A stretch of DNA of 64,000 nt from a phage: assembly GCA_012343875.1 (NCBI GenBank), contig GCA_012343875.1_3924.1. One strand, given 5' to 3'. Under the pieces are notes generated by a model. That model did no database searches. It was not told the origin of the DNA and saw only the letters and a list, made by a program, of their open reading frames with translations. Position numbers and translations under genes: made by a program. This document shows positions 2,802 through 43,293 of this stretch, piece after piece (position 1 is the stretch's first letter; every line of letters starts with the position of its first letter).

Positions 2802-3587
2802 TTAGTTCTTTGCGTCTAAGAAGGTAACTTCTGGTGAAGAGAAGATTGCCTCGATATCCTCATCAGTTCTTGCATAGATATAAGCTTCTGCATCACTACC
2901 AAATGTTACAGCAATTCTGTGATTGCTCTTCGACAGGTGGGTAACTAGAGCGTTACTTAGAGACATCTTTTCAACCGGAGGGTTACTTTGATGTATCTTA
3001 CCTTTTCTTCGTCTGAAGAGGGTAACTGCATTATCCGTGAACACTGCTACACCTGCAAAGTATTCTGGCTCACAGTAGTTTTTCCAACCTGAGAGTAACT
3101 TGTGGTACATATCACCTTCATAGACATACAGATAGACATCTACACTCTTCATCACCTGATTGGTGATAACTGTGACAGCTTGAGGGTCAAGTCCACCGAT
3201 ACCTGCACCAATCATAGGTAGACCGACTTTCTTCAACTGATTCACTTCACAGTATCTGTTAAGTTGCTTCAAAGATGACTCTAAAGCACTGTATCGGGCA
3301 TCTTTACCAGTCTTAAGCTGAGTGTAAAGGTTAGCTATACGACCTTGTTTTAAGCGTGCTACAGAGAAATTACCTAGTAAATTCTCACAGGGTTTGTGAC
3401 CTATACCACCTGCATAGAGATAAACTTCTGTATCGGTCTCATATGCTTTTGGGTAAAGTTTAGAAATCTTGTCAGCGATACCTGCACCCATTAAATTCAT
3501 ACAGTTGCAACCGTGACCGATGATGTCAAACTTACCTTTATCAAATGCGGCAAAGATATCACCATTGATTATTTTTACAATACCCAT
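2802..3587 (-). CDS. macro-domain protein (TARG1/DarG-type ADP-ribose binding or hydrolase domain) with C-terminal domain of unknown function
   Basis: N-terminal GDIF..(H)GCNCMNLMGAGIA matches the TARG1/DarG-type macro signature (H-C-x5-MGAGIA) as I recall it. Confidence 0.6.
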   Translation of the reverse strand: MGIVKIINGDIFAAFDKGKFDIIGHGCNCMNLMGAGIADKISKLYPKAYETDTEVYLYAGGIGHKPCENLLGNFSVARLKQGRIANLYTQLKTGKDARYSALESSLKQLNRYCEVNQLKKVGLPMIGAGIGGLDPQAVTVITNQVMKSVDVYLYVYEGDMYHKLLSGWKNYCEPEYFAGVAVFTDNAVTLFRRRKGKIHQSNPPVEKMSLSNALVTHLSKSNHRIAVTFGSDAEAYIYARTDEDIEAIFSSPEVTFLDAKN

Positions 3588-5108: not shown

Positions 5109-5124
5109 TTAACAATCTCCTGAA

Positions 5125-5148
5125 ATGAAAAAGGCTCCCGAAGGAGCC
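5125..5148 (-). terminator. intrinsic terminator-like hairpin GGCTCC-UUCG-GGAGCC followed by a U-tract
   Basis: Minus strand: GGCTCCTTCGGGAGCC TTTTTC; one of three near-identical copies. Confidence 0.55.
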
Positions 5149-5151
5149 TGT

Positions 5152-5180
5152 ATATTATTCTTGACTGTAATAGTTGACAA
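5152..5180 (-). promoter_or_regulatory. sigma70-like promoter abutting the hairpin (TTGTCA - 17 nt - TAATAT)
   Basis: -35 at 5175-5180 and -10 at 5152-5157 on the minus strand; -10 ends 4 nt before the hairpin. Confidence 0.4.
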
Positions 5181-5967
5181 GTGAAATAACTTGATTCATC
5201 AACAACTTATCAGCCTGTGCTCCGCGACCAGCTTGTAATGCTAGTTGGTATGCTTCTGTAACATATTTGTTAGACATACCTTCACAGTAGTCATTGTAGT
5301 CTTCCCAAAAGGAAAATGCAGCATCACCATATAGGCGTAGTGTAATTAACATTGCTGCACGAATCCCAGAAGAATACTTACGTTTTGCGTTTACTACACC
5401 TTTAAGCTGTACTTCAAGAGAATCAATTTGTTCCAGCTCATTTTTAAAGTCATTAAGGTATTTAACTGTTTCAGTGTTAGAGACCTGTTGCACACCGTAG
5501 TATGCAGCAACATACTTAATAGCAGTTGCCCAAGATGCCTTCATCAGTTCTGACTCTGGGTTGAAAGAAATCATCTTCATATTTCCGTAATAAACTTCTG
5601 AAGGTTTTTCTCTTGCTAACTCAGAGTCAAAATGAGTGTACAAATCTGTGACATCCAGTATGGAGTTCACATGGTATATAACTGCAATCAAGCTTTCTGG
5701 TCGTGTCAGGTTACCAACTTTCCACGCCTCTCGACGTGAGTGACCATCAATGATGAACAGTGAACTACCGAACTTAGCCACATGGACTACTGTTTGGTCT
5801 GGTGATACATCACCATTAAGGTGTTTGCTTTTCAGACGCTTAAGTGTATTCCGTTGACGAGGGTTTTCTTTGTAACGTTTTTCATTAAGAAAATCCTCGA
5901 CACTGATAATCTTAGTGTGAATTTTAACAACCTTGCCATTCAGTGCTACATTGATGCTGTTTGCCAT
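5155..5967 (-). CDS. ParB/Srx-fold (DGQHR-like) domain protein
   Basis: Motif IIDGHSRREAW resembles the ParB/sulfiredoxin/DndB DGQHR-type signature; lies next to Dam. Confidence 0.35.
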   Translation of the reverse strand: MANSINVALNGKVVKIHTKIISVEDFLNEKRYKENPRQRNTLKRLKSKHLNGDVSPDQTVVHVAKFGSSLFIIDGHSRREAWKVGNLTRPESLIAVIYHVNSILDVTDLYTHFDSELAREKPSEVYYGNMKMISFNPESELMKASWATAIKYVAAYYGVQQVSNTETVKYLNDFKNELEQIDSLEVQLKGVVNAKRKYSSGIRAAMLITLRLYGDAAFSFWEDYNDYCEGMSNKYVTEAYQLALQAGRGAQADKLLMNQVISLVNYYSQE

Positions 5968-5978
5968 AACTTGATACC

Positions 5979-6863
5979 TTAGTTGTGAATGATTACTTCG
6001 TTAATACCTTTGCTTCTCTGTGCATGTATTGTGTATGAATGGCTAACCTCTGTCAAGTTAAAATTTTCAGGAATTAAGCTTGTCCATCCATCCCACTGAG
6101 AGTTTGACATCAAAACTTTAGAACCTAACTCCCCCCAAGAAACCATATCTTCGCATAATTTTACAGACATCTCAATGTCAAACTTTGCACCATATTTCTG
6201 GTTGGTGTTGATATACGGGGGGTCACAGTAAATAACTGTGCCTTCTCCATGTTTTATGTCAACCATGTCATAAGGTTCACTGCTAAGTATTACCCTTTCA
6301 TCGGTGATAAAACTGTAGAACTCTGATAGTGATTCTTTAGTTTTTGTGAAGAAAACCTCTTCTTCCAGCAAATACCCACAAGGTGTTGCATAGTGGCCTT
6401 TCATCTCTTTAGTAGTCTGCCATACACCACCAAAACTTAATTTTTGAAGGAAAAACTGTCTGGCATAGTATCTGTAGTCATATGCTCCTTCTTCACCAAG
6501 CAAAAGAAGTTCTTCTCTTATACTGTAATACATTTTATAGCGTAGGCGGTTATGACGCTGACCTTTCACGGCATACTCTTCCTGCATAGGTAAGGCTAAG
6601 TACCTCTTTGACAAGTACTCAAATTCTTCCATAAAGTTTTCATAGTCATCTCTGAAAGTTGTGTAAAGACCTATAATATGTTTATTTATCTCATTAATAA
6701 ACACTTTTGCCTCTGGGTATCTGTTATAAGCCCAGATAGCTACTGAACCACCACCTGAAAACAGGTCATAGAAGTTTTTACAGTTGTCTGGGAAGACACC
6801 TAAACGCTCATACTCTTTTAATATTCTTGTTTTACCACCAAGATATTTGAACATCGGCTTCAT
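5979..6863 (-). CDS. dam: DNA adenine (N6) methyltransferase, Dam-like
   Basis: FSGGGS (SAM-binding motif I) and YCDPPY (DPPY catalytic motif). Confidence 0.8.
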   Translation of the reverse strand: MKPMFKYLGGKTRILKEYERLGVFPDNCKNFYDLFSGGGSVAIWAYNRYPEAKVFINEINKHIIGLYTTFRDDYENFMEEFEYLSKRYLALPMQEEYAVKGQRHNRLRYKMYYSIREELLLLGEEGAYDYRYYARQFFLQKLSFGGVWQTTKEMKGHYATPCGYLLEEEVFFTKTKESLSEFYSFITDERVILSSEPYDMVDIKHGEGTVIYCDPPYINTNQKYGAKFDIEMSVKLCEDMVSWGELGSKVLMSNSQWDGWTSLIPENFNLTEVSHSYTIHAQRSKGINEVIIHN

Positions 6864-6879
6864 TAATACTCCTTGAAAT

Positions 6880-6902
6880 TTAAAAAGGCTCCCGAAGGAG
6901 CC
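6880..6902 (-). terminator. intrinsic terminator-like hairpin GGCTCC-UUCG-GGAGCC + U-tract
   Basis: Minus strand: GGCTCCTTCGGGAGCC TTTTTAAATTT, 15 nt upstream of the Dam start codon. Confidence 0.55.
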
Positions 6903-6905
6903 TGT

Positions 6906-6934
6906 ATCTTAACCTTAACCGAGGACTTTTGCAA
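6906..6934 (-). promoter_or_regulatory. sigma70-like promoter abutting the hairpin (TTGCAA - 17 nt - TAAGAT)
   Basis: -35 at 6929-6934, -10 at 6906-6911 on the minus strand. Confidence 0.35.
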
Positions 6935-8612: not shown

Positions 8613-8671
8613 TGGTTCTCCTGTTTAGTTTATTGTGACAACAATTATACAGCACTCTGCACAAAATACAA

Positions 8672-8699
8672 ATAAAAAAGGCCGCCGAAGCAGCCTTTT
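8672..8699 (-). terminator. terminator-like hairpin with flanking A/T runs
   Basis: AAAAAAGGCCGCCGAAGCAGCCTTTT, downstream of the rIIB-like gene. Confidence 0.45.
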
Positions 8700-8712
8700 A
8701 AGAAATTACTTA

Positions 8713-33699: not shown

Positions 33700-36399
33700 A
33701 TGGAAAACGTAGATTTTAAAAACTTACATTTAGTTGGTGATACAGAAACTGATGGTTTACTCCTTGAGTTCACTAAAGTGCACGTAATGGCTTTCGCAGA
33801 CTATAAATCTGACGATGAAGAGCCACCTGTATGGGTCTTTACAGATGAACCTATTCTCGGTCACAAGTACACCAAGTACATCAAGGGTGGCTTACGTGAA
33901 GGTATTGAGTTTGCGTTAAAGGCAAAACGTCTTTGCATCCATAACGGTCTCGGTTATGACTGGTGGGTTTTCAATCACATTGCACCTGATTTATGGAACT
34001 TTGATAACCCAAAGTGTAAACCGTGGAGTAATTTCTTTCAGGATTCTCTTATCCAGTCTCGTGTTCAGTGGATGGATAGACCAACTCCAAAGGGTTATAA
34101 AGGTGCTCATGGTTTGGCTGCATGGGGTGCTCGTGTTGGTGTTCGTAAACCAGAGATTGAACATTGGGGTGTGTGGAATGCAGAAATCTTCACTCGTGTT
34201 GTAGAAGATATCCGTATTAACGCCAAAACTAAACGGGCACTTGATAATGAGTATCTCAAGCTTAAGAAGTGTGGCATAGATACTTATGAAACCTACATGC
34301 GAGCTAAAGAAACATCTTTCTGGATGAGCCAGCAAGCTATCAATGGTTGGAAAGCTGATAAAGAGCTTATGGAGTTCCATGTAAAGGAACTTGACAAGTT
34401 GACTAATGAGCTTGCTTCAGAGGTTGAACCACATCTACCTCCAACTATTAAGACCAAAGGTAAAGTAACTGGTGAAGAGTTTGCAAAGGCTTGGAATGAG
34501 TATGTTGAAACATTTGGTCATGCAGATGGGTTGAAGAGAATCACCAAGTATCCTAAGACGAAGTACCGTCAACAGGTGCGTAACGGTGAGATGCAGACAT
34601 ACGAAATCAAACCATTTGGTAAGCCAACTACAAAGATTTTTAACATTGAAAAGAGAAATTGCTATACACCAACCAACTCTGTAACTGGTGAAGAGTACAA
34701 GGAAGGCTTTGTAGCAATGAAGGATGCTCGTGCAATTTGCAATGAGTTGAATGCAAAGATTGGTAAGAAATGCAAAGACTGGAAGCCAGTGAAAACAGTC
34801 AAAACTGTGAAGTACTATAACAGTCACGTTGTTAACCACTTTGAACTTGAGTCAAGTCGCTACACAGGTTTGATTGATGCACCATATACACCAATTGATT
34901 TTGAAGTTTCTCGTATGACTCAGGTAGCAGTTGTTAAAGACTACTTGAAATCAGTTGGTTGGATTCCAGATGACTGGAACTACAAGAAAGACTCAGACGG
35001 TCGCCCTGTCAAAGTTTGTCGTTTCAAAGACAATAAAAAGATGATTACAAAACATCCTAAGTGGCAGGAGATGGTAGAACGTTGTGGTTTAAGTTATGTT
35101 GAACATGAAGGTGTTCAGTACATTGAGCATAACTGGTCTGTGAAGAAGTACACAGATTTGCTTGAGCCTTGCTTAATCCGTACTTCACCAAAACTTACTG
35201 AATCATCTTATGATACGATTGAAGGTGAGCTTGGACAGAAGATTGCTAAGTACTATACTTTGATGCACCGACGCAGAACTATTGAGAACTCAAAGGATGA
35301 TGAAAAAGGTTGGTTGAACCAGATTCGTCCTGATGGTCGCCTTAGTGCTGGTGCAATGGTGTTTGGTACTTCAACTGGACGTATGACACAATATGGTATT
35401 GTAAACGTACCGTCTGGTGCTGCTGTCTATGGGGAACCAATGAGGGCAGTGTGGATTTGTGAGGAAGGTACTAACGTTGTCTCTGTAGATATGAACTCAG
35501 CCCAGCTAGTTCTTCTTTGTAACTTTATGGGTGATAAAGACTTCACCAAAGCGGTAACGCAAGGTAAAGAAGAGATTGAGTTTATTCGTCAAGAAGATGG
35601 ACGCTATTACTGCAAACATTTTGATGAGTACCTAAACCCAGAAATTGATAAGTACCTTCGCTATGACTCTGAGAATGACCTGTACGTTGTCTATTCAGGG
35701 ACTGATGCACATACACTGAACAGTATCTACTTTAGCTTGAACGATGAGCAGGACATCTTGACTTGTCGAGCTACTCAGGATGAGAATCTTCTTCATGAGA
35801 TTAGCAAAGGTCGTAAGAAAGCTAAGAATGGTATCTATGCACTACTGTTTGGTGCAGGTGATGAGAAGTTTGCTAAGACGATTAAAGCTGCAACTACTCA
35901 GGAAGGTGCACTGACTAAACAAACTTACTTTATTCGTTTGCCTAAAATTAAGAAGCTACTAGATGACTTGGAAGCTGACTACAAAGCAACTAAAAAGGCA
36001 CTTGAAGAGGTGTTTGGTAAGACTGCTGCAATCTCTAAAGGGGGTTTTGTAAAGGTTGCTGGAGCTTGGTTGTGGTGTAAATCTCCACACAAACTGTTGA
36101 ACTACCTTTTGATGGGTTCAGAGGCCCAGATTCAAAATGAGGCAATTAACCTTGCTTGTCGTCGCATGATTGACGAAGGGTTGATGAAGCTAAATGGGCG
36201 TAAACCAGCTATAGGTGCTCGTTTGCTCTGCGCATATCACGATGAAACAAGTTGGGAATGCCCAGAAAGTATGACGGCAGAAGTGAAAGCAGTTACTGAC
36301 TGGTATTATGGACAAGCTTCTAAAAACTTAGGTCTTAAGAAAGAAACACTTGTTACAGGTACTGGTAAGGTTGGTAAAAGCTGGCTTGAAGTACACTAA
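33700..36399 (+). CDS. DNA polymerase, family A (Pol I-like) with 3'-5' exonuclease domain
   Basis: Exo motif LVGDTETDG; polymerase motifs RKKAKNGIYALLFGAG and CAYHDE; start moved to ATG 33700 (RBS GAGGGAG). Confidence 0.85.
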   Translation: MENVDFKNLHLVGDTETDGLLLEFTKVHVMAFADYKSDDEEPPVWVFTDEPILGHKYTKYIKGGLREGIEFALKAKRLCIHNGLGYDWWVFNHIAPDLWNFDNPKCKPWSNFFQDSLIQSRVQWMDRPTPKGYKGAHGLAAWGARVGVRKPEIEHWGVWNAEIFTRVVEDIRINAKTKRALDNEYLKLKKCGIDTYETYMRAKETSFWMSQQAINGWKADKELMEFHVKELDKLTNELASEVEPHLPPTIKTKGKVTGEEFAKAWNEYVETFGHADGLKRITKYPKTKYRQQVRNGEMQTYEIKPFGKPTTKIFNIEKRNCYTPTNSVTGEEYKEGFVAMKDARAICNELNAKIGKKCKDWKPVKTVKTVKYYNSHVVNHFELESSRYTGLIDAPYTPIDFEVSRMTQVAVVKDYLKSVGWIPDDWNYKKDSDGRPVKVCRFKDNKKMITKHPKWQEMVERCGLSYVEHEGVQYIEHNWSVKKYTDLLEPCLIRTSPKLTESSYDTIEGELGQKIAKYYTLMHRRRTIENSKDDEKGWLNQIRPDGRLSAGAMVFGTSTGRMTQYGIVNVPSGAAVYGEPMRAVWICEEGTNVVSVDMNSAQLVLLCNFMGDKDFTKAVTQGKEEIEFIRQEDGRYYCKHFDEYLNPEIDKYLRYDSENDLYVVYSGTDAHTLNSIYFSLNDEQDILTCRATQDENLLHEISKGRKKAKNGIYALLFGAGDEKFAKTIKAATTQEGALTKQTYFIRLPKIKKLLDDLEADYKATKKALEEVFGKTAAISKGGFVKVAGAWLWCKSPHKLLNYLLMGSEAQIQNEAINLACRRMIDEGLMKLNGRKPAIGARLLCAYHDETSWECPESMTAEVKAVTDWYYGQASKNLGLKKETLVTGTGKVGKSWLEVH

Positions 36400-36460
36400 T
36401 TAGTATTGACAAGGTGCTCATGGAAGAGTACCTTATACTGTATCTTATATAGGAGGGCTT

Positions 36461-36670
36461 ATGAGCCATCGTGGAAGAACCCATGCAGCGATGATGAAAG
36501 GTGCTTCAAAGGAGACTATCAAAAATCGTAAGCAGAAGTTGTTTGAGAGAATGAACAGGTTAATTGACAATTCATCTCTTTCAGGTTCTGAGAAGGTTTT
36601 CTTGAAAGGTAATCTGAAAAGCATTGCACAAGAACTTATTGACATTGAGTATTGGAGACACCAAAAATGA
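36461..36670 (+). CDS. hypothetical small protein (69 aa)
   Basis: RBS AGGAGGG upstream of ATG. Confidence 0.4.
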   Translation: MSHRGRTHAAMMKGASKETIKNRKQKLFERMNRLIDNSSLSGSEKVFLKGNLKSIAQELIDIEYWRHQK

Positions 36671-36879
36671 CACTTGCAGACGTTATCCAACAACTTCATG
36701 ATAACTGCTATACTCCAGAGTTGATTCAGGAGATGCTTATTGTAGTGATGCCTAGTAAGTTCGTAAAAGGTTTTAATAATGACTCTTTAAGGTCTGCGCA
36801 TATCCTTATTGTTGATGGTAAGATTGCAAGGGACCGTACTGGAGTCCTTAAGGGCGAACGTATTAATATTGACCTCTGA
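36667..36879 (+). CDS. hypothetical small protein
   Basis: Start taken at internal ATG 36667 overlapping the upstream stop. Confidence 0.35.
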   Translation: MTLADVIQQLHDNCYTPELIQEMLIVVMPSKFVKGFNNDSLRSAHILIVDGKIARDRTGVLKGERINIDL

Positions 36880-36897
36880 ATATTGGAGATACCGAAA

Positions 36898-37053
36898 ATG
36901 AAACGCAAAGTTAAGTTTTTTAATTTATATGGAAGAGTTGGTAAAGGTTTTGACTGGCAACTGTTACGCTCAAATGTTAAAAGCAATGAATTAGCACCAC
37001 TTATCATTCATTATCGACGTACATACAGAGAAGTAGAGCATCGTGAACAGTAA
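36898..37053 (+). CDS. hypothetical small basic protein (51 aa), not in ORF track
   Basis: RBS GGAGAT 8 nt upstream; MKRKVKFFNLYGRVGKGFDWQLLRSNVKSNELAPLIIHYRRTYREVEHREQ. Confidence 0.3.
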   Translation: MKRKVKFFNLYGRVGKGFDWQLLRSNVKSNELAPLIIHYRRTYREVEHREQ

Positions 37054-37066
37054 ACAGGGGTGTATT

Positions 37067-37303
37067 ATGTGGAAATCAGTAATTGCGCTTGGTGTTATTT
37101 TTCTATCTGGCTGCAACCCTTCTTATGAAGATAAAAATGCTTCTTACAGCCTCCCACCAGAGATGCAAGATTGCAGAGTATACAAGTTACATGGTGATGC
37201 TATAAGCAGAGATATTGTTGTTGTCAGATGTCCAAACTCCCAAACAACAACATCTTATAGCTATGGCAAAAATGGTCAATCACACACTACGGTTATTGAG
37301 TGA
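37067..37303 (+). CDS. small lipoprotein (about 78 aa), candidate superinfection-exclusion factor
   Basis: Signal peptide with lipobox FLSGC; two additional Cys in the mature part. Confidence 0.45.
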   Translation: MWKSVIALGVIFLSGCNPSYEDKNASYSLPPEMQDCRVYKLHGDAISRDIVVVRCPNSQTTTSYSYGKNGQSHTTVIE

Positions 37304-37313
37304 GGGTTTCACG

Positions 37314-37520
37314 ATGGAAGTCCTAGTAAACTATATCTATTGTTATGATGTTGTTCACTCTACTACAACGGTAGCTCAACGTAACCCAATCGTCCCACGA
37401 GAAGGTGAGTTGGTTCGCATTGATGGTTGGACTTACACTGTGGAAAGCATCATTCATAAGTTTGATGTTGCTGGTGATGTTCAAGTTATTGACGTAGAAA
37501 TTGGTGGTAAGAGAAAATGA
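37314..37520 (+). CDS. hypothetical small protein
   Basis: Start taken at ATG 37314 (RBS GAGGG). Confidence 0.35.
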   Translation: MEVLVNYIYCYDVVHSTTTVAQRNPIVPREGELVRIDGWTYTVESIIHKFDVAGDVQVIDVEIGGKRK

Positions 37521-37676
37521 AATCTAAGCAAACAATGGCAGATGCAATCTTCACAGTACACAGTTTCGAAAGGTTGCGCATCAAAGATGCAAAGGATACC
37601 CCAAAATGCGTTGTACATTTTATTAAAAGGCGTAGTAACATGTCCTATATGAAATCTGACAAAGGTGAGAGTACAA

Positions 37677-37895
37677 ATGGATAAAGATAACAAATATAAT
37701 AACGCCGTCCTTACAGAAGATGGTGAGCTTGAAACATTCATTCTTCGTGTTGATGGTAAACTATTCCGGTGTCGTTGTGGGTCAAACTGTTTTCATAAAC
37801 CAGATAAAAATGACTTAGAGCTTTACGCATGTAATGCTTGCAATACTTGGTATCACTCAGAGGTTAAAAATGACAATTCTATACAAACAAAATAA
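37677..37895 (+). CDS. small zinc-ribbon protein
   Basis: CRCGSNC .. CNACN cysteine pairs. Confidence 0.4.
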   Translation: MDKDNKYNNAVLTEDGELETFILRVDGKLFRCRCGSNCFHKPDKNDLELYACNACNTWYHSEVKNDNSIQTK

Positions 37896-38970
37896 AGATG
37901 GCTCTTTTAACGTCTGGTCATGCGTTGCTGTAGGTAACAAAGTTATTACAACCTACGGTAAAGAAAATGGCAAGATGATGTTTGAAGAGTATACAGCAGA
38001 ACCTAAAAACATCGGTAAAAAGAATGAGCGTAACGCTGAACAGCAAGCTCTCTTTGAAGTTGCTGCTAAGTACAAAAAGCAAGTTGACCGCAAAGGTTAT
38101 GCTTACACAAAAGAGTCTGCACAGAATACTGAAAAGGCAGGTGTACAGCTTGCTCATGATGCTGCAAAGGTTAGCCACGCAAAGTATTTGAAGTTCCCTG
38201 CTGATGCTCAACCAAAACTTGATGGTGTACGTTGCAGAATTTCAAGAGATGCTGATTCAGTTAGTTTCACGGCTTATTCTCGTGAGAATACTGTTTACAA
38301 CGTTCCAGCAGAACTAATCCCAGATTTGCTTTTGCTGCTTAAATTACACCCGCAAGTTGAAGACTTTGATGGCGAGATTTATGCTCATGGTTGGGACTTA
38401 GAAGATATTGTATCTATGATTAAGAATGCTGACAATCCAGACCGTCACCTTCTTAAATTCTACTGGTATGATATCTGTGACAATTCAAAATCTTGGCCTG
38501 AGCGTCGTGAAGTTATTGATAACTCACCTATTGTTGAGCTTGGGGATGCCTGTAGAGTTGTTCCTGTACAGACTATCCGTGTAAATTCTTGGGAAGAGTT
38601 TGATGAAGCTCATGATAAGTGGGTTGAAGCTAAGTTTGAAGGTGCAATGTACCGTTCAATCTCTGAAGACTCATTCTATGAGTGTTGTCACCGTTCATAC
38701 TTCTTGATTAAGCACAAGAAGATGCACACTGAAGAGTTTAAAGTGACTGGTGTAAAGACTGATAAACGTGGTCATGGTAAGTTCGTTGTAGAGACTCTTC
38801 CTAACGTCTTTGTAGATGTCTCATGGAAGACTACTCATGAGAAGAAACAGTATCTTGCTGAGCATCCTGATGAGTTTATCGGGAAACCTTTAACGGTACA
38901 GTTCCAGAAGATGACTCGTAAGGGGTCTTTGCAGTTCCCTGTTGGGCTAGTTATACGAGATTATGAATAA
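37870..38970 (+). CDS. ATP-dependent DNA ligase
   Basis: Adenylation motif I PKLDGVRC (KxDG); start at ATG 37870 with RBS GAGGT. Confidence 0.8.
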   Translation: MTILYKQNKDGSFNVWSCVAVGNKVITTYGKENGKMMFEEYTAEPKNIGKKNERNAEQQALFEVAAKYKKQVDRKGYAYTKESAQNTEKAGVQLAHDAAKVSHAKYLKFPADAQPKLDGVRCRISRDADSVSFTAYSRENTVYNVPAELIPDLLLLLKLHPQVEDFDGEIYAHGWDLEDIVSMIKNADNPDRHLLKFYWYDICDNSKSWPERREVIDNSPIVELGDACRVVPVQTIRVNSWEEFDEAHDKWVEAKFEGAMYRSISEDSFYECCHRSYFLIKHKKMHTEEFKVTGVKTDKRGHGKFVVETLPNVFVDVSWKTTHEKKQYLAEHPDEFIGKPLTVQFQKMTRKGSLQFPVGLVIRDYE

Positions 38971-38976
38971 AAGTTG

Positions 38977-39004
38977 TTGACATAGAAAATTTGGTGAGTA
39001 TACT
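38977..39004 (+). promoter_or_regulatory. strong sigma70-like promoter
   Basis: TTGACA (38977-38982) - 16 nt - TATACT (38999-39004). Confidence 0.6.
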
Positions 39005-39080
39005 GAGCAGCATAAACCAACGGGTACTCACCAGCATCACTTAAGAGTCTTTTAAAAGGGTTTTTAAGTGATGTGTAGCT

Positions 39081-39155
39081 CGGTCAGGTATGGTGCGGTG
39101 GTGTAAGGTGGTGTCAGGTGTAGTATGGTGCTGTGATGTGAGGTATGGGTAGTTA
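39081..39155 (+). repeat. GT-rich block of degenerate tandem 10-bp repeats (block 1)
   Basis: Decamers gtgtaaggtg / gtgtcaggtg / tagtatggtg / ctgtgatgtg / aggtatgggt; almost no C on the plus strand. Confidence 0.6.
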
Positions 39156-39220
39156 GTCTCAGCTACATTAAAATGAGACTTACCTTTTTAAAAGGTCTTT
39201 AAGAGGGTCTTTTAATAAGG

Positions 39221-39290
39221 TATTGTATGGTGTAGTTTGGTTAGGTATGGTTGGGTGTGGTAAGGTAGGGTATGGAAGGATGGCAGTAGC
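39221..39290 (+). repeat. GT-rich block of degenerate tandem 10-bp repeats (block 2)
   Basis: Decamers tattgtatgg / tgtagtttgg / ttaggtatgg / ttgggtgtgg / taaggtaggg / tatggaagga. Confidence 0.6.
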
Positions 39291-39327
39291 CTTATAAAAA
39301 ATCTGCCAAATAAGCTATAAAATCTGT

Positions 39328-39356
39328 TGACAAGTCAGGTGTTATAGCTTATTTTT
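39328..39356 (+). promoter_or_regulatory. sigma70-like promoter upstream of the 39400 gene
   Basis: TTGACA (39328-39333) - 17 nt - TATTTT. Confidence 0.45.
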
Positions 39357-39399
39357 ATACTCAATGTAATACAAAATTTAATATAACTTTGAGGTCATT

Positions 39400-39783
39400 A
39401 TGAAAAAGGTTTTATTAGCTGCTGCAATGGTTATGGCAATGAACTTACCAGTCAATGCAACAGAACTTCCAAATGTGGACTTATCAGGTGTTCCAGAAGA
39501 TACTTGCCAGATTGTAAAAGGTGTTGCGCTATCTAAAGGTGAGTTACTTAAACCAATCTCTGAAGAATCTTTGACAGAGATGACTGATAAGGTAACTGAC
39601 TATCAGTATCGTGTTCTTGCAGAGTATTTCCTGCAATCTGCAAACATTAAAGAGAAACACCATGACGATATTGATGTACAGGCGATGCTCAACCACCGTA
39701 TCCAGTTTAAAGAAGATTTGATGCAAAAAGCTATGTATGGTGTTGAGTATTTCTTAGAAAACAGAAGCTGCACAGGTATTTGA
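39400..39783 (+). CDS. secreted protein of unknown function (127 aa)
   Basis: Signal peptide MKKVLLAAAMVMAMNLPVNA. Confidence 0.45.
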   Translation: MKKVLLAAAMVMAMNLPVNATELPNVDLSGVPEDTCQIVKGVALSKGELLKPISEESLTEMTDKVTDYQYRVLAEYFLQSANIKEKHHDDIDVQAMLNHRIQFKEDLMQKAMYGVEYFLENRSCTGI

Positions 39784-39784
39784 T

Positions 39785-39997
39785 ATGGCTCTTAAAAAGT
39801 TACATCCCAGAAGCGGTTATGGTAAGATAGTCGATGATACAGACGGCTTTACAGTATTTACAGTCATCTGTCAAGATGATTCACAGATTGAAAAGGCTCT
39901 TGATGATTATCTTAACGATGAACGTGAAAAGGTTAGGGCTACAAACATAGATTCATTAATTGACACTTCACGTAAACGGAAGAAGAAAGATGAATGA
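39785..39997 (+). CDS. hypothetical small protein (70 aa)
   Basis: Co-directional ORF. Confidence 0.35.
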   Translation: MALKKLHPRSGYGKIVDDTDGFTVFTVICQDDSQIEKALDDYLNDEREKVRATNIDSLIDTSRKRKKKDE

Positions 39998-40289
39998 AGT
40001 TTTTGACCCTTATGCTCCACAAGATGATTGGGAGGCTGACAGAGAGGCTGAAATGGAGAGTTATGTTTGTCCAATGGATGTAGACGAAATGAGAGATTTC
40101 GTTGCACACCGTTTTAAGAAAGAGATTAAATCCAGAGGTCTTTCTCAAGAGCAAGTTGCTAAAATTTGTGGTATCTCTCAGGCTCGCGTATCCAACATAA
40201 TCCACCTCACTGGTAATGTCTCCCTTGAGTATATGTTGGAAGTATGTGAAAAATTTGGTGTTAATTTCAATTTAAGGCTGGCAGATTAA
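39990..40289 (+). CDS. helix-turn-helix DNA-binding protein, candidate transcription regulator
   Basis: LSQEQVAKICGISQARVSNI resembles an HTH recognition unit; start taken at ATG 39990. Confidence 0.4.
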   Translation: MNEVFDPYAPQDDWEADREAEMESYVCPMDVDEMRDFVAHRFKKEIKSRGLSQEQVAKICGISQARVSNIIHLTGNVSLEYMLEVCEKFGVNFNLRLAD

Positions 40290-40290
40290 T

Positions 40291-40650
40291 ATGAAACGTG
40301 AAAACATTATCCACTCTGAAAACTTCGCATTAGGCTTTTATGGTGTACCTACTCACCTTGAAAAGTATTATGGTGTGAAGATTCTCTCCAATCTCATTAT
40401 GGCTTACAAAGATGGTAAGATTAAGCATACTGAGAAGAAACGTGTCATGGGCTATATGGCTGTAGGTTCAGCAATCTCGAACATTAAGCTGGAAACAACT
40501 AGCAGTCAGATTGTGAAAGACCACTTCATCAAAGAGCTTTACCAGAATCTTGATGGTGTAGATGTTCAGGCTGTTTGGCTGGATGTTGACGGTCATAACT
40601 ACACGAGTTTTGTTTTCAAAAACGACGACATTAAGTGTCTGTTCCCATAA
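40291..40650 (+). CDS. hypothetical protein (119 aa)
   Basis: Co-directional ORF. Confidence 0.4.
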   Translation: MKRENIIHSENFALGFYGVPTHLEKYYGVKILSNLIMAYKDGKIKHTEKKRVMGYMAVGSAISNIKLETTSSQIVKDHFIKELYQNLDGVDVQAVWLDVDGHNYTSFVFKNDDIKCLFP

Positions 40651-40663
40651 TAGGTGATTAACT

Positions 40664-41179
40664 ATGATTGATATCTACTTACAAGATGCTCATGCAGATT
40701 TCCTTAAAACGATGCTTAAAAAGTTTATGGCTTCACAGGGTGATAATGAAGCATCTTTTAAAATAGTCACATGTGGCGACGAAGCTGGTTTTGTTGAGAT
40801 TGAACATGAAGATACTGGAAAGACTGTTTGTAAGTTACCTGATAGCATGTTCTCTAACACGTTCTTAACAAAGACTAGTATAAATGTTAAGCTTGTGCCT
40901 CAGATTGAAACATACTCTGGCACAGATTATCCTAAAGGTTTTAAGTCATTGATGAAGTACTTCTTAGATGACTTTGTGGGTAATCTTCTGAGGGAGGTAA
41001 AAGAAAGTCGTACAGTGTTAACTGTAGAGAACATGGGAGGAACTATAAAGGTTACTTCTGACTGTTTTGTGATGAGCCTCTTCGACTTCGTTCCTAAGAA
41101 CTTTGATGGTATTCTGGATGAAGAAGATGACTGTGTAGACTTTATATTGGTTCTTGAACCAGTTTTTGAGGTTAAATAA
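40664..41179 (+). CDS. hypothetical protein (171 aa)
   Basis: Co-directional ORF. Confidence 0.4.
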   Translation: MIDIYLQDAHADFLKTMLKKFMASQGDNEASFKIVTCGDEAGFVEIEHEDTGKTVCKLPDSMFSNTFLTKTSINVKLVPQIETYSGTDYPKGFKSLMKYFLDDFVGNLLREVKESRTVLTVENMGGTIKVTSDCFVMSLFDFVPKNFDGILDEEDDCVDFILVLEPVFEVK

Positions 41180-41440
41180 ATGAAAATTGAATACTGCTAT
41201 GAGTCTGATGGAACACCTATCCGATGTCCACATTGTGGATGTACAGACTTGCAAGGTGAGGTAAGTGAAATAGTCAACGGTCATATCGCTGAAGAGAGTA
41301 CAAGGTGTACAGGGTGTAATGAAATCATTGCTTTCTGGGCTTATGGTTCATACCAACCTACACCACACTTAATCTACCATAGCAATAAAGCTGTGAAGAA
41401 TGTTATCAACTGGTTCATTAAGAAAGGATTTACAAAATGA
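41180..41440 (+). CDS. small zinc-ribbon protein (86 aa)
   Basis: CPHCGC .. CTGCN. Confidence 0.4.
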   Translation: MKIEYCYESDGTPIRCPHCGCTDLQGEVSEIVNGHIAEESTRCTGCNEIIAFWAYGSYQPTPHLIYHSNKAVKNVINWFIKKGFTK

Positions 41441-41982
41441 TTAAATTAATCTTTGCAAGTGGTGAAAATGGGGAGTTTGGTACTCCAACTGGTATGCCGT
41501 GGCCTCGACATAAACAGGATATGAAAGAGTTTAAGAGAATCACTAAAAACAACTTAGTAGTGATGGGTAATGAGACTTTCAAGACTCTGGGTAGTAAACC
41601 TTTACCAGAACGTGCAAACCTCATCTTAACAAATTCTGTACCATACTTAGGCATAGACTTTGGCAAAGATGAGGTAATGTATGCTAAGGCCAGCAAAGAA
41701 TCCTTTGGAGCATTTTTGAAGTATCTCGATAGCTCTATTGATGAAGATGTCTTTGTAATTGGTGGTGCAGGTGTCCTTGTCAATGCTTTACCATATGCTG
41801 GTGTAGTTTTCCATACAGTTTTCCATAAAGTTACTGAAGAGGCCACTGTGTATTTACCTTTTGAAAACTTCTTTGAGAAGCTGTATGATAACAGTGTATT
41901 TACAAAGGTACAGTCAAAACCATCAGAGGATGGTAAAGCAACCTTTGAAATTTATGTTCCACAAGTAAAAGGACACTTTTGA
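41437..41982 (+). CDS. frd: dihydrofolate reductase
   Basis: N-terminal MIKLIFASGENGEFGTPTGMPW typical of DHFR; immediately upstream of thymidylate synthase. Confidence 0.75.
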   Translation: MIKLIFASGENGEFGTPTGMPWPRHKQDMKEFKRITKNNLVVMGNETFKTLGSKPLPERANLILTNSVPYLGIDFGKDEVMYAKASKESFGAFLKYLDSSIDEDVFVIGGAGVLVNALPYAGVVFHTVFHKVTEEATVYLPFENFFEKLYDNSVFTKVQSKPSEDGKATFEIYVPQVKGHF

Positions 41983-41983
41983 T

Positions 41984-42883
41984 ATGTCACAAGCAGATAC
42001 AAGTTACAAAGATATCCTGAACCATGTTTTATCAGTTGGTGAACTGCGTACTACACGAACTGGAGATGTTATCTCTGCATTTGCTCCACCTAAGTTTCGC
42101 TTTGATATGAGGACTGGTTTCCCACTCTTAACATCTAAACAGGTGTTTACACGGCAAGTTATTGGGGAAGCTTTATGGTTCCTGAATGGTGAGAATAAGC
42201 TGGGTGAACTCCGTTACCGTACTTGGGGTGAAAATGATGGGGAACGCTGGACTATCTGGTCAGATGATTTTAAACGCTGGTTAAGCTCTAATTATTCTTC
42301 TGAACAAGATTGGTTAGATGATGCAGGTGGGAGAATCTATGGGGTTCAGTGGAGAAACTTTGAAGGTCATAATGGTTGTGTTGTAGACCAACTAGAGACC
42401 TTAGTAACAAAGATGAAGGGTGATATCACAGACCGTTACATGCTTGTTAATGCTTGGAATGCAGCAGATATTGCAGCAAACTCAATGGCTTTAGCACCTT
42501 GTCATGTTCTGTTTCAGATTTATATCACTAATGAAGGTGAAGTGGATTTGCAATGGTATCAGCGTTCTGTAGACACCTTTTTAGGACTTCCATTTAACAT
42601 TGCGTCTTACGGCTTCATCTTAGAAGTTCTTTGTAAGATGACTGGATACACTCCACGGTACTTGATAGGTGTCTTTGGGGATACTCAGATTTATCAGAAC
42701 CATATGAAGCAGGTTTATGAACTGATGAACAATGAAGAGTTCCATGCACCAACTTTTGAGATTGGTCTACCACTTAATACTTTAAGTGACCTGAAACATC
42801 TTACTGCAAGTGATTTTATTGGTGGTATTAACAACTACCAACATGCAGGGAAGATTGAAGCACCTCTGTCAGTAGGTAAGTAA
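41984..42883 (+). CDS. thyA: thymidylate synthase
   Basis: Active-site APCH and QRSVDTFLGLPFNIASYGF blocks. Confidence 0.85.
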   Translation: MSQADTSYKDILNHVLSVGELRTTRTGDVISAFAPPKFRFDMRTGFPLLTSKQVFTRQVIGEALWFLNGENKLGELRYRTWGENDGERWTIWSDDFKRWLSSNYSSEQDWLDDAGGRIYGVQWRNFEGHNGCVVDQLETLVTKMKGDITDRYMLVNAWNAADIAANSMALAPCHVLFQIYITNEGEVDLQWYQRSVDTFLGLPFNIASYGFILEVLCKMTGYTPRYLIGVFGDTQIYQNHMKQVYELMNNEEFHAPTFEIGLPLNTLSDLKHLTASDFIGGINNYQHAGKIEAPLSVGK

Positions 42884-42885
42884 AA

Positions 42886-42925
42886 ACAAAAAAGGCTCCT
42901 TTTTACGGGAGCCTTAAAATTTTAT
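42886..42925. terminator. bidirectional intrinsic terminator between convergent blocks
   Basis: AAGGCTCC-tttttacg-GGAGCCTT hairpin flanked by A-run upstream and T-rich run downstream. Confidence 0.6.
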
Positions 42926-43293
42926 TTTTCAGTATTCTTTGTGTTCTTTTCAGTAATAGCTTGCAAGGCTGATACTGATTGGGCCAGATTGTTCACACTG
43001 TCAGAGAATTTATCAAGAGTTTTGGTAAGTTTCGCATTCTCACCCTTAACATTCTCTAACTGGACTTTCTGGTTCTCCATACCTAGCTGAATCAGTCTCA
43101 TGTCAGACTGTAAATCACGAATAGCTGAATAGTTACTTTTGGAATAATTATCTAGCTGCTGTAACTTTGTTGTGACAGACACTTCTTGCTTACCACTTGA
43201 AACTTGCATAGTGGTATACATCCCGATAACACTAAAAATACCAACTACAATTGCACCAATATTATTTTTAAAAGCTTCCTCTAGCCACTTCAT
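42922..43293 (-). CDS. membrane-anchored coiled-coil protein (123 aa), possible lysis-associated
   Basis: Single TM IGAIVVGIFSVIGMY followed by a helical region. Confidence 0.35.
   Translation of the reverse strand: MKWLEEAFKNNIGAIVVGIFSVIGMYTTMQVSSGKQEVSVTTKLQQLDNYSKSNYSAIRDLQSDMRLIQLGMENQKVQLENVKGENAKLTKTLDKFSDSVNNLAQSVSALQAITEKNTKNTEK

Follow-up and report, generated by a model that had tools for sequence, protein, structure and literature searches.

ParB-like domains are known to accompany phage methylases. The phage ParB-CTPase fold is often fused to N6_N4 and other methyltransferase domains and binds CTP, ATP or GTP by context (PMC12704722), and in one clade of phage thymine dioxygenases activity in vivo requires co-expression of a divergent ParB-like partner (bioRxiv 10.1101/2025.08.14.668559). 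Here we describe a two-gene cassette in a 64,000-nucleotide (nt) stretch of phage DNA (contig GCA_012343875.1_3924.1 of GenBank assembly GCA_012343875.1; the whole stretch is hereafter the window), in which a D12-class N6-adenine DNA methyltransferase gene is followed by the gene for a 270-amino-acid (aa) protein. An earlier note, made from the sequence alone, had read the pair as a Dam-family methylase beside a protein reminiscent of ParB/Srx/DndB DGQHR-type domains, possibly a DNA-modification and anti-restriction unit. We assign a probability of roughly one half to the reading that the pair is an optional module in which an orphan D12 methylase, probably not specific for GATC, and a nucleoside triphosphate (NTP)-binding, DNA-bound ParB/Srx-fold cofactor together serve escape from host restriction. 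The absence of GATC from these genomes and the annotation of the methylase were also known beforehand. What appears to be new is a large, sequence-invisible family of stand-alone ParB-fold proteins, its consistent adjacency to four methylase families, and the occurrence of two such cassettes, independent of each other, in one genus.

The two open reading frames (ORFs) fill positions 5155-6863 exactly, as the earlier note had it, and both are on the minus strand. Its gene order, with the methylase downstream, was wrong: along transcription the methylase lies upstream and the 270-aa gene downstream. The genes are 11 nt apart, and an AAGG ribosome-binding site overlaps the methylase TAA stop codon, so that the linkage is tight and operon-like. 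The features of the cassette are as follows.

5979-6863, minus strand: 294-aa D12-class N6-adenine DNA methyltransferase (PF02086), first gene of the cassette
6744-6761, minus strand: methylase motif I, FSGGGS (S-adenosylmethionine binding), aa 35-40, read from the sequence and aligned to FVGGGA of DpnM
6213-6224, minus strand: methylase motif IV, DPPY (catalytic), aa 214-217, read from the sequence and aligned to DPPY of DpnM and T4 Dam
5155-5967, minus strand: 270-aa protein, second gene of the cassette, with a predicted ParB/Srx-type alpha/beta domain (about aa 1-120) and a predicted all-helical C-terminal domain (aa 122-269)
5848-5865, minus strand: NPRQRN motif of the 270-aa protein, aa 35-40, resembling box I
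5734-5748, minus strand: DGHSR motif of the 270-aa protein, aa 74-78, resembling box II, at a predicted strand-to-helix junction
5608-5631, minus strand: FDSELARE of the 270-aa protein, aa 113-120, possible box-III equivalent
6877-6919, minus strand: upstream 43-nt direct repeat, with a terminator hairpin at 6903-6886 (AGGCTCCTTCGGGAGCCT then TTTTT) right before the methylase ribosome-binding site
5123-5165, minus strand: downstream 43-nt direct repeat, with the same terminator hairpin at 5149-5132 (AGGCTCCTTCGGGAGCCT plus a T run), past the 270-aa gene

The window genome is a Felix O1-like myovirus of the genus Felixounavirus, and 258 phage records match the cassette flanks at 80-99% identity. 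The whole 2.8-kilobase (kb) query is covered in only 14 of them, and tblastn located both genes in 14 records and the methylase alone in one more, which makes 15 with the methylase. In the other records inspected (rows H16-H25), 39% of the query is covered, representing the two flanks and neither gene; in vB_SflM_004 (L003) the cassette position is empty, with no replacement. The two 43-nt repeats are 86% identical and 1754 nt apart, and cassette-less phages carry a single copy. Given these terminator repeats at both ends, the cassette can be described as a ribosome-binding site-methylase-partner-terminator unit that was inserted after, or is excisable between, copies of an intergenic terminator, and recombination between the repeats would excise it precisely. 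We conclude that the two genes are accessory and come and go together, as one cassette between terminator repeats. Divergent Felixounavirus-like contigs carry it at the same site, with the methylase 72% and the partner 88% identical. Both ORFs are real genes under purifying selection: the ratio of nonsynonymous to synonymous substitution rates (dN/dS) in related phages is 0.04-0.12 for the methylase and 0.04-0.05 for the 270-aa protein, versus 0.28 for the flanking kinase and 0.18-0.26 for the spanin, with the caveat that dS is saturated in far comparisons.

Assignment of the methylase to the D12 class comes from Pfam PF02086 (E 2e-23, 83.8 bits versus a cutoff of 22, model positions 1-253 of 253), alongside a match to the phrog_56 DNA methyltransferase (E 2e-52), and the FxGxG motif stands N-terminal to DPPY in the alpha-type order. 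The Dam-family label given in the earlier note holds for the class and for the FSGGGS and DPPY motifs, but not at the level of the Dam models, where the protein scores 99.5 bits against TIGR00571 ('dam'; cutoff 114.85) and 25 bits against NF008152, the E. coli Dam equivalog (cutoff 441). The GATC-specific enzymes T4 Dam, E. coli Dam and DpnM resemble it in Pfam family, FxGxG...DPPY order and size, yet are only distantly related, as the matches to their Protein Data Bank (PDB) sequences indicate (DpnM E 4e-7, T4 Dam 1e-4, E. coli Dam only 0.6). Its close homologues are other Felixounavirus copies only, so no named or characterized relative was found. A search across the window for a second family member or a further methylase found none.

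The window contains no GATC site, against about 218 expected under a Markov model, and fragments of cassette-less relatives likewise contain none; GATC absence is a published trait of the Felix O1-like genus (PMC4690856, PMC5477317). Self-protection at GATC is therefore not the role of the methylase. Because a GATC-specific Dam would find no substrate on the phage, this enzyme must either recognize another site or act on a target other than the phage genome, and from the sequence we consider a non-GATC specificity probable. The basic residue that follows P-x-G in the DNA-recognition hairpin of the GATC enzymes (PFGRY or PFGKR) is missing from the window methylase (PCGYL); two HMMER alignments of the T4 Dam/DpnM/EcoDam hairpin place the key arginine differently, opposite Q or K, and since they disagree we draw no conclusion from them about the methylase motif. 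Some GenBank records already annotate the methylase, for instance as 'putative Dam family' in JLBYU28, a label that in a genome without GATC cannot mean GATC protection. Two other short sites are also scarce in the window, with 3 CCWGG (CCAGG/CCTGG) Dcm sites versus about 69 expected and an observed/expected ratio of 0.63 for CATG.

The 270-aa protein is labelled 'hypothetical protein' in every annotated GenBank record and belongs to phrog_2615, for which the PHROGs function field reads unknown. It matches no Pfam, NCBIfam or PADLOC model, and neither phmmer nor a profile built from 68 sequences gave a usable match among PDB sequences; designed TIM barrels found by phmmer (E 1e-3) were discarded as a repeated short low-information match. 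A HMMER scan of 1.84 billion cluster representatives recovered 503 relatives at E <= 1e-3. Among 68 relatives scanned, none matches an informative Pfam family, and PF02195 matches neither the window protein nor any of the 68 at E <= 0.1. Longer family members (388-460 aa), examined for a fused methylase, contain no Pfam domain. Comparison of a 139-sequence profile by hhalign with B. subtilis ParB (checked against 6sdk) gave a probability of 0.4%, and with P1 DdrB 0.25%, the latter a template of low sensitivity; as both templates are single sequences, these values are weak negative evidence only. On one metagenomic contig (L005), two family members lie in tandem at 61-888 and 889-1902, one of 275 aa with 41% identity to the window protein and the other, a distant paralog, of 337 aa.

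Across 139 sequences the family has the signature (D)NPxQR(D/N)T ... H.L ... K(L/I)DGH(T/S)R...W ... P ... LY..FD(N/S)..A.E, with R39, D74, G75, H76, W82, P90, Y110, D114, D182 and F220 kept in at least 90%. The near-invariant NPxQR and DGH(S/T)R elements resemble ParB boxes I and II. In the first, Q38 is present in 124 and R39 in 134 of the 139; in the second, which forms part of the IIDGHSRREAW string singled out by the earlier note (aa 72-82, nt 5722-5754), R78 is invariant (139/139) and D74, G75 and H76 are retained in at least 94% (G75 in 130 sequences). D114 and E120 of the FDSELARE segment are found in 127 and 113.

Where the sequence models are silent, structure prediction is informative, and the search by both routes that the earlier note had proposed ended with no sequence-model match and a predicted fold of ParB/Srx type. 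An AlphaFold2 model built from the 139 sequences (predicted local distance difference test score, pLDDT, 96; predicted template modeling score, pTM, 0.85) has an N-terminal alpha/beta domain followed by an all-helical C-terminal domain. In Foldseek searches against the PDB the top eight matches are all nucleotide-bound ParB or PadC (probability 0.97-1.0), and the best structural matches comprise ParB, PadC, KorB and sulfiredoxin; neighbors in BFVD outside the family are annotated as ParB-like nuclease, Noc, DndB-like, DUF262/GmrS and ParB/sulfiredoxin. The DGHSR motif is placed where strand 69-74 gives way to helix 76-84, a beta-hairpin-to-helix position like that of GERR in ParB. In our own reading of the model against the 6sdk sequence, the run of secondary structure around the motifs mirrors B. 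subtilis ParB: the NPRQR loop would correspond to NPYQPR, the beta-hairpin and DGHSR-helix to IVAGERRFRA, and the strand and helix ending in FDSELARE to those ending in ENLQRE, a secondary-structure position that makes FDSELARE a possible box-III counterpart. The C-terminal domain gave no nuclease match. On account of the predicted structure and the motif, we file the protein as ParB/Srx-fold, outside PF02195, DGQHR and DUF262. The ParB/Srx part of the likeness drawn in the earlier note is thus borne out by the predicted fold and the box-like motifs, but its DGQHR part is not, the motif being DGHSR and no DGQHR model matching.

The genomic company of the family provides a clue to function. We assembled 51 non-redundant family loci, mostly IMG/VR viral contigs together with seven GTDB genomes, GenBank phage records, metagenome contigs and the window. 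Pfam identified 14 N6_N4 (PF01555), four D12 (PF02086), two MT-A70 (PF05063) and one Dam (PF05869) methylase among the 98 immediate neighbors, so that a DNA methylase of one of four families is directly adjacent in 21 of the 51 loci. The adjacent methylases are mostly on the same strand as the family gene, at gaps of -35 to +11 nt, and are found on either side of it. Among the 150 proteins at positions ±2-4, by contrast, two N6_N4 and one C5 methylase appear in the 25 Pfam families listed, and clustering adds one MT-A70 at position -3. With these counted as four, the excess at adjacent positions has a Fisher p of about 4e-6, or 3e-8 when only neighbors of at least 100 aa are counted. The earlier note's remark that ParB-like domains are often partnered with phage methylases extends to the family of the 270-aa protein. 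Its proposal of a DNA-modification unit is supported in part, by the linkage and the methylase adjacency. Since the family adjoins four methylase families in many phages, the 270-aa protein is probably a methylase helper, not a chance neighbor.

A larger arrangement recurs in 12 viral contigs, where the family gene lies in the middle of a triad between an SNF2-like helicase and an N6_N4 methylase. The triad is a conserved, overlapping unit, found on contigs that include L041, L043-L047, L049, L061, L062, L064 and L028; on the last of these the downstream gene has no Pfam match. In two unrelated phages a calcineurin-like metallophosphoesterase follows the family gene in place of a methylase (L001 6768-7886, L042 6807-7877), and at another locus (L027) the upstream neighbor is a protein with a weak PF02195 ParB_N match and a helix-turn-helix.

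Ten Felixounavirus genomes hold another cassette at a separate hot spot, between rIIB and the SLT-like gene, with the same order: a PF02384-like methylase (299 aa), a 279-aa paralog of the 270-aa family and a 77-aa ORF (L066, ESCO56 OM386665.1, 1446-3481). The paralog is 27% identical and has the motif IDSHAR. The window lacks this second cassette, the corresponding intergenic gap being only 100 nt (8613-8712). Both cassettes are present in three phages, and the first partner has been lost in two, ESCO56 and Tf, compared with none of the 12 records that have the first cassette only (Fisher p = 0.03, on small numbers). In ESCO56 a clean 702-bp deletion has removed the partner, leaving its last ~32 codons (L004 3025-3065); in Shigella phage Tf (L068 1501-2314) the gene is split into two coding sequences, which may reflect a frameshift or a sequencing error. 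The methylase beside the lost partner is intact in both, and ESCO56 carries the paralog in its second cassette. Such a pattern would be expected of a partner function that is needed but that a paralog can supply.

How the module might work can be outlined from these observations. D12 methylases transfer methyl groups to the N6 position of adenine. The ParB-like protein would bind an NTP in a pocket formed by Q38/R39, G75-H76-x-R78 and D114/E120, and would cooperate physically with the methylase on DNA, its protein-level role being to load the enzyme, activate it or make it processive. Methylation by the pair may be fast enough for phage DNA to escape host restriction. NTP binding, physical cooperation, the methylation target and the anti-restriction benefit are the steps that we infer, and cooperation at the protein level is supported by two precedents, the ParB-methylase fusions and the ParB-dependent dioxygenases. 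A wider proposal, which we offer tentatively and regard as possible rather than likely, is that the family of about 500 clusters constitutes an unrecognized, PF02195-invisible branch of the ParB-CTPase fold, serving as a general NTP-gated loader or activator of phage methyltransferases of several unrelated families and perhaps of other DNA enzymes. In that case the methylase would need its partner in order to methylate the injected or replicating phage genome efficiently or processively.

Several observations weigh against the partner being a methylase cofactor. No methylase is adjacent in 30 of the 51 loci (59%), where the neighbors include a metallophosphoesterase, a dUTPase, an integrase and a clamp loader. 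In ESCO56 an intact methylase has outlasted the first partner, which may therefore not be a strict requirement. D12 enzymes, T4 Dam and EcoDam among them, act with no cofactor protein. Close kinship links many of the contigs in which an N6_N4 methylase is adjacent (L043-L047), and the 21 loci are consequently not 21 independent events; nevertheless, despite this kinship, the association recurs with four non-homologous methylase families and in several architectures.

The first two of these observations also speak for the alternative that two independent morons travel together, the methylase as an orphan anti-restriction enzyme and the ParB-like protein with another role in DNA metabolism, such as an NTP-regulated nickase or DNase directed against the DNA of the host or of competitors, or an accessory of replication or recombination. 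Also in its favor, the methylase-less neighborhoods contain RecA/RecT-type proteins besides the metallophosphoesterase (two loci), dUTPase and clamp loader, and PMC5512222 cites reports of ParB-type domains as nonspecific nickases or DNases (Bce_0392, Osa). We nevertheless judge this alternative unlikely. Methylases are enriched about 8- to 10-fold at adjacent positions, across four families and in both gene orders, the junctions are tight or overlapping, the Felixounavirus cassette is gained and lost as a unit, and a second cassette of methylase plus paralog occurs in the same genus.

The layout of a methylase beside a small partner gene also recalls Type II restriction-modification, and the pair could be a restriction-modification-like or toxin-antidote system in which a ParB-like nuclease would attack unmethylated DNA of the host or of rival phages while methylation shields the phage's own. 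Among Felixounavirus genomes, ESCO56 has the methylase without the partner and the reverse was not seen, which fits the rule that a nuclease cannot outlive its methylase, and nuclease activity is reported for some ParB/Srx domains (PMC5512222). The adjacency data make this explanation distinctly improbable, because the same family pairs with four unrelated methylase families, presumably differing in specificity, and often with none, which a sequence-specific nuclease would not tolerate. We know of no Type II endonuclease with a ParB/Srx fold. The 270-aa protein lacks a PADLOC match, and in fused ParB-methylase proteins both domains work in cis (PMC12704722).

Instead of a protein-level cofactor, the ParB-like protein could be a DndB-like transcriptional controller of methylase timing or level. 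DndB, which is ParB-like and of the DGQHR type, is described as repressing the dnd operon in an ATP-dependent manner (PMC12704722), DndB-like proteins are among the BFVD structural neighbors, and the predicted C-terminal helical domain could bind DNA. We give this idea only a slim chance. The window protein has no helix-turn-helix Pfam match, and among its 68 relatives there is one HTH_23 (E 1.5e-4) and one HTH_28 (E 0.09) match; its gene lies downstream of the methylase, with no room for a regulated promoter between the terminator and the start codon; and the precedents of fusion and of plasmid co-expression point to the protein level (PMC12704722; 10.1101/2025.08.14.668559). Hardly credible, finally, are a canonical partition ParB, for which chromosomal ParB proteins as the best PDB matches are offset by a lytic phage with methylase and spanin neighbors, no ParA gene among them, and no PF02195, ParB helix-turn-helix or ParB C-terminal Pfam match (parS was not searched for), so that we reject a partition role, and a chance resemblance from a spurious ORF, given a dN/dS of ~0.04 and 503 cluster-representative relatives.

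A cofactor role for the ParB-like protein would have practical consequences. Phage methylases are a main route of restriction escape and are relevant to host range in phage therapy, and the phages that carry the cassette are of the Felix O1-like kind employed against Salmonella and E. coli. If the partner is needed, heterologous expression of the methylase only would underestimate or mis-assign its specificity, and annotation pipelines would be missing a widespread cofactor family. As a small, tractable and non-essential unit in phages that grow on E. coli K-12, the cassette can serve as a test system.

Around the cassette the genes run in the order rIIA, rIIB, SLT-like protein, polynucleotide kinase, phrog_2267, the methylase and 270-aa genes, and i-spanin/o-spanin, with a Macro-domain phosphatase gene farther along:

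2802-3587, minus strand: 261-aa Macro-domain protein (PF01661; phrog_335 'phosphatase'; annotated in ESCO56 as O-acetyl-ADP-ribose deacetylase)

This protein is a possible counter to ADP-ribosylation-based defense. Elsewhere, the GC skew changes sign within 34000-43000, reaching about +0.15 to +0.19 at 34-42 kb and being negative in the remainder of the window, a pattern compatible with a run of genes on the plus strand. No tRNA genes were found across the whole 64-kb window; as Alf5, a relative within the genus, has 19 (PMC5477317), a tRNA cluster, if there is one, would be located beyond the window. Two GenBank records named 'Campylobacter phage A132/A126' (MG065664.1 and MG065668.1) are 95.7% identical to this region of E. 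coli/Salmonella Felixounavirus and are probably mislabelled or contaminant assemblies.

Among described systems, the fusions of a ParB-CTPase to a methyltransferase (PF02195 with PF01555 or MT-A70, including the B. cereus 'ParB-methylase' Bce_0392) offer a close parallel. They occur in phages, prophages and plasmids and, like the cassette, are mobile-element combinations of a ParB/Srx-type domain with an adenine or N4 methylase; N6_N4 and MT-A70 partners are common to the fusions and the 270-aa family (PMC12704722; PMC5512222). Unlike the fusions, the cassette consists of separate genes, its methylase in the window is of the D12 class, and the 270-aa family has its own helical C-terminal domain of ~150 aa, as predicted. 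Because PF02195 does not recognize the family, surveys based on that model would miss it.

DndB and the DGQHR proteins share only a fold-level resemblance, the motif here being DGH(S/T)R, not DGQHR or DGQQR; NCBIfam DGQHR models gave no match at E <= 1, and no dnd or ssp genes lie nearby. DUF262 (PF03235) likewise yielded no Pfam match, and the 270-aa protein has no fused HNH/DUF1524 nuclease. P1 DarB and related polyvalent proteins combine a methylase, an SNF2/DExH helicase and, in some, a DdrB-like ParB domain in one polypeptide (PMC5512222). The same trio is encoded by separate genes in the 12 viral contigs with the triad, whereas the window cassette has no helicase and shows no sign of being packaged into virions.

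The 5mYOX clade E ParB-like regulators are likewise stand-alone, divergent ParB/Srx-fold proteins encoded beside a phage DNA-modifying enzyme (10.1101/2025.08.14.668559). They are required for dioxygenase activity in vivo; for some, AlphaFold and Foldseek were the only means of identification, and the nearest structure was M. xanthus ParB (10.1101/2025.08.14.668559). At the position of the catalytic Glu of GERR, the clade E proteins have Asp or His and the 270-aa family has His; the box-I Gln position is Asn in the former, while Gln is kept in 124 of 139 sequences of the latter. Their partner is a dioxygenase, not a methylase. Should the 270-aa protein prove to be a methylase cofactor, dependence on a ParB-like partner would extend from phage thymine dioxygenases to methyltransferases; if the wider proposal of a general loader also held, a ParB-like clamp plus a DNA-modifying enzyme would be a common design of phage epigenetic counter-defense.

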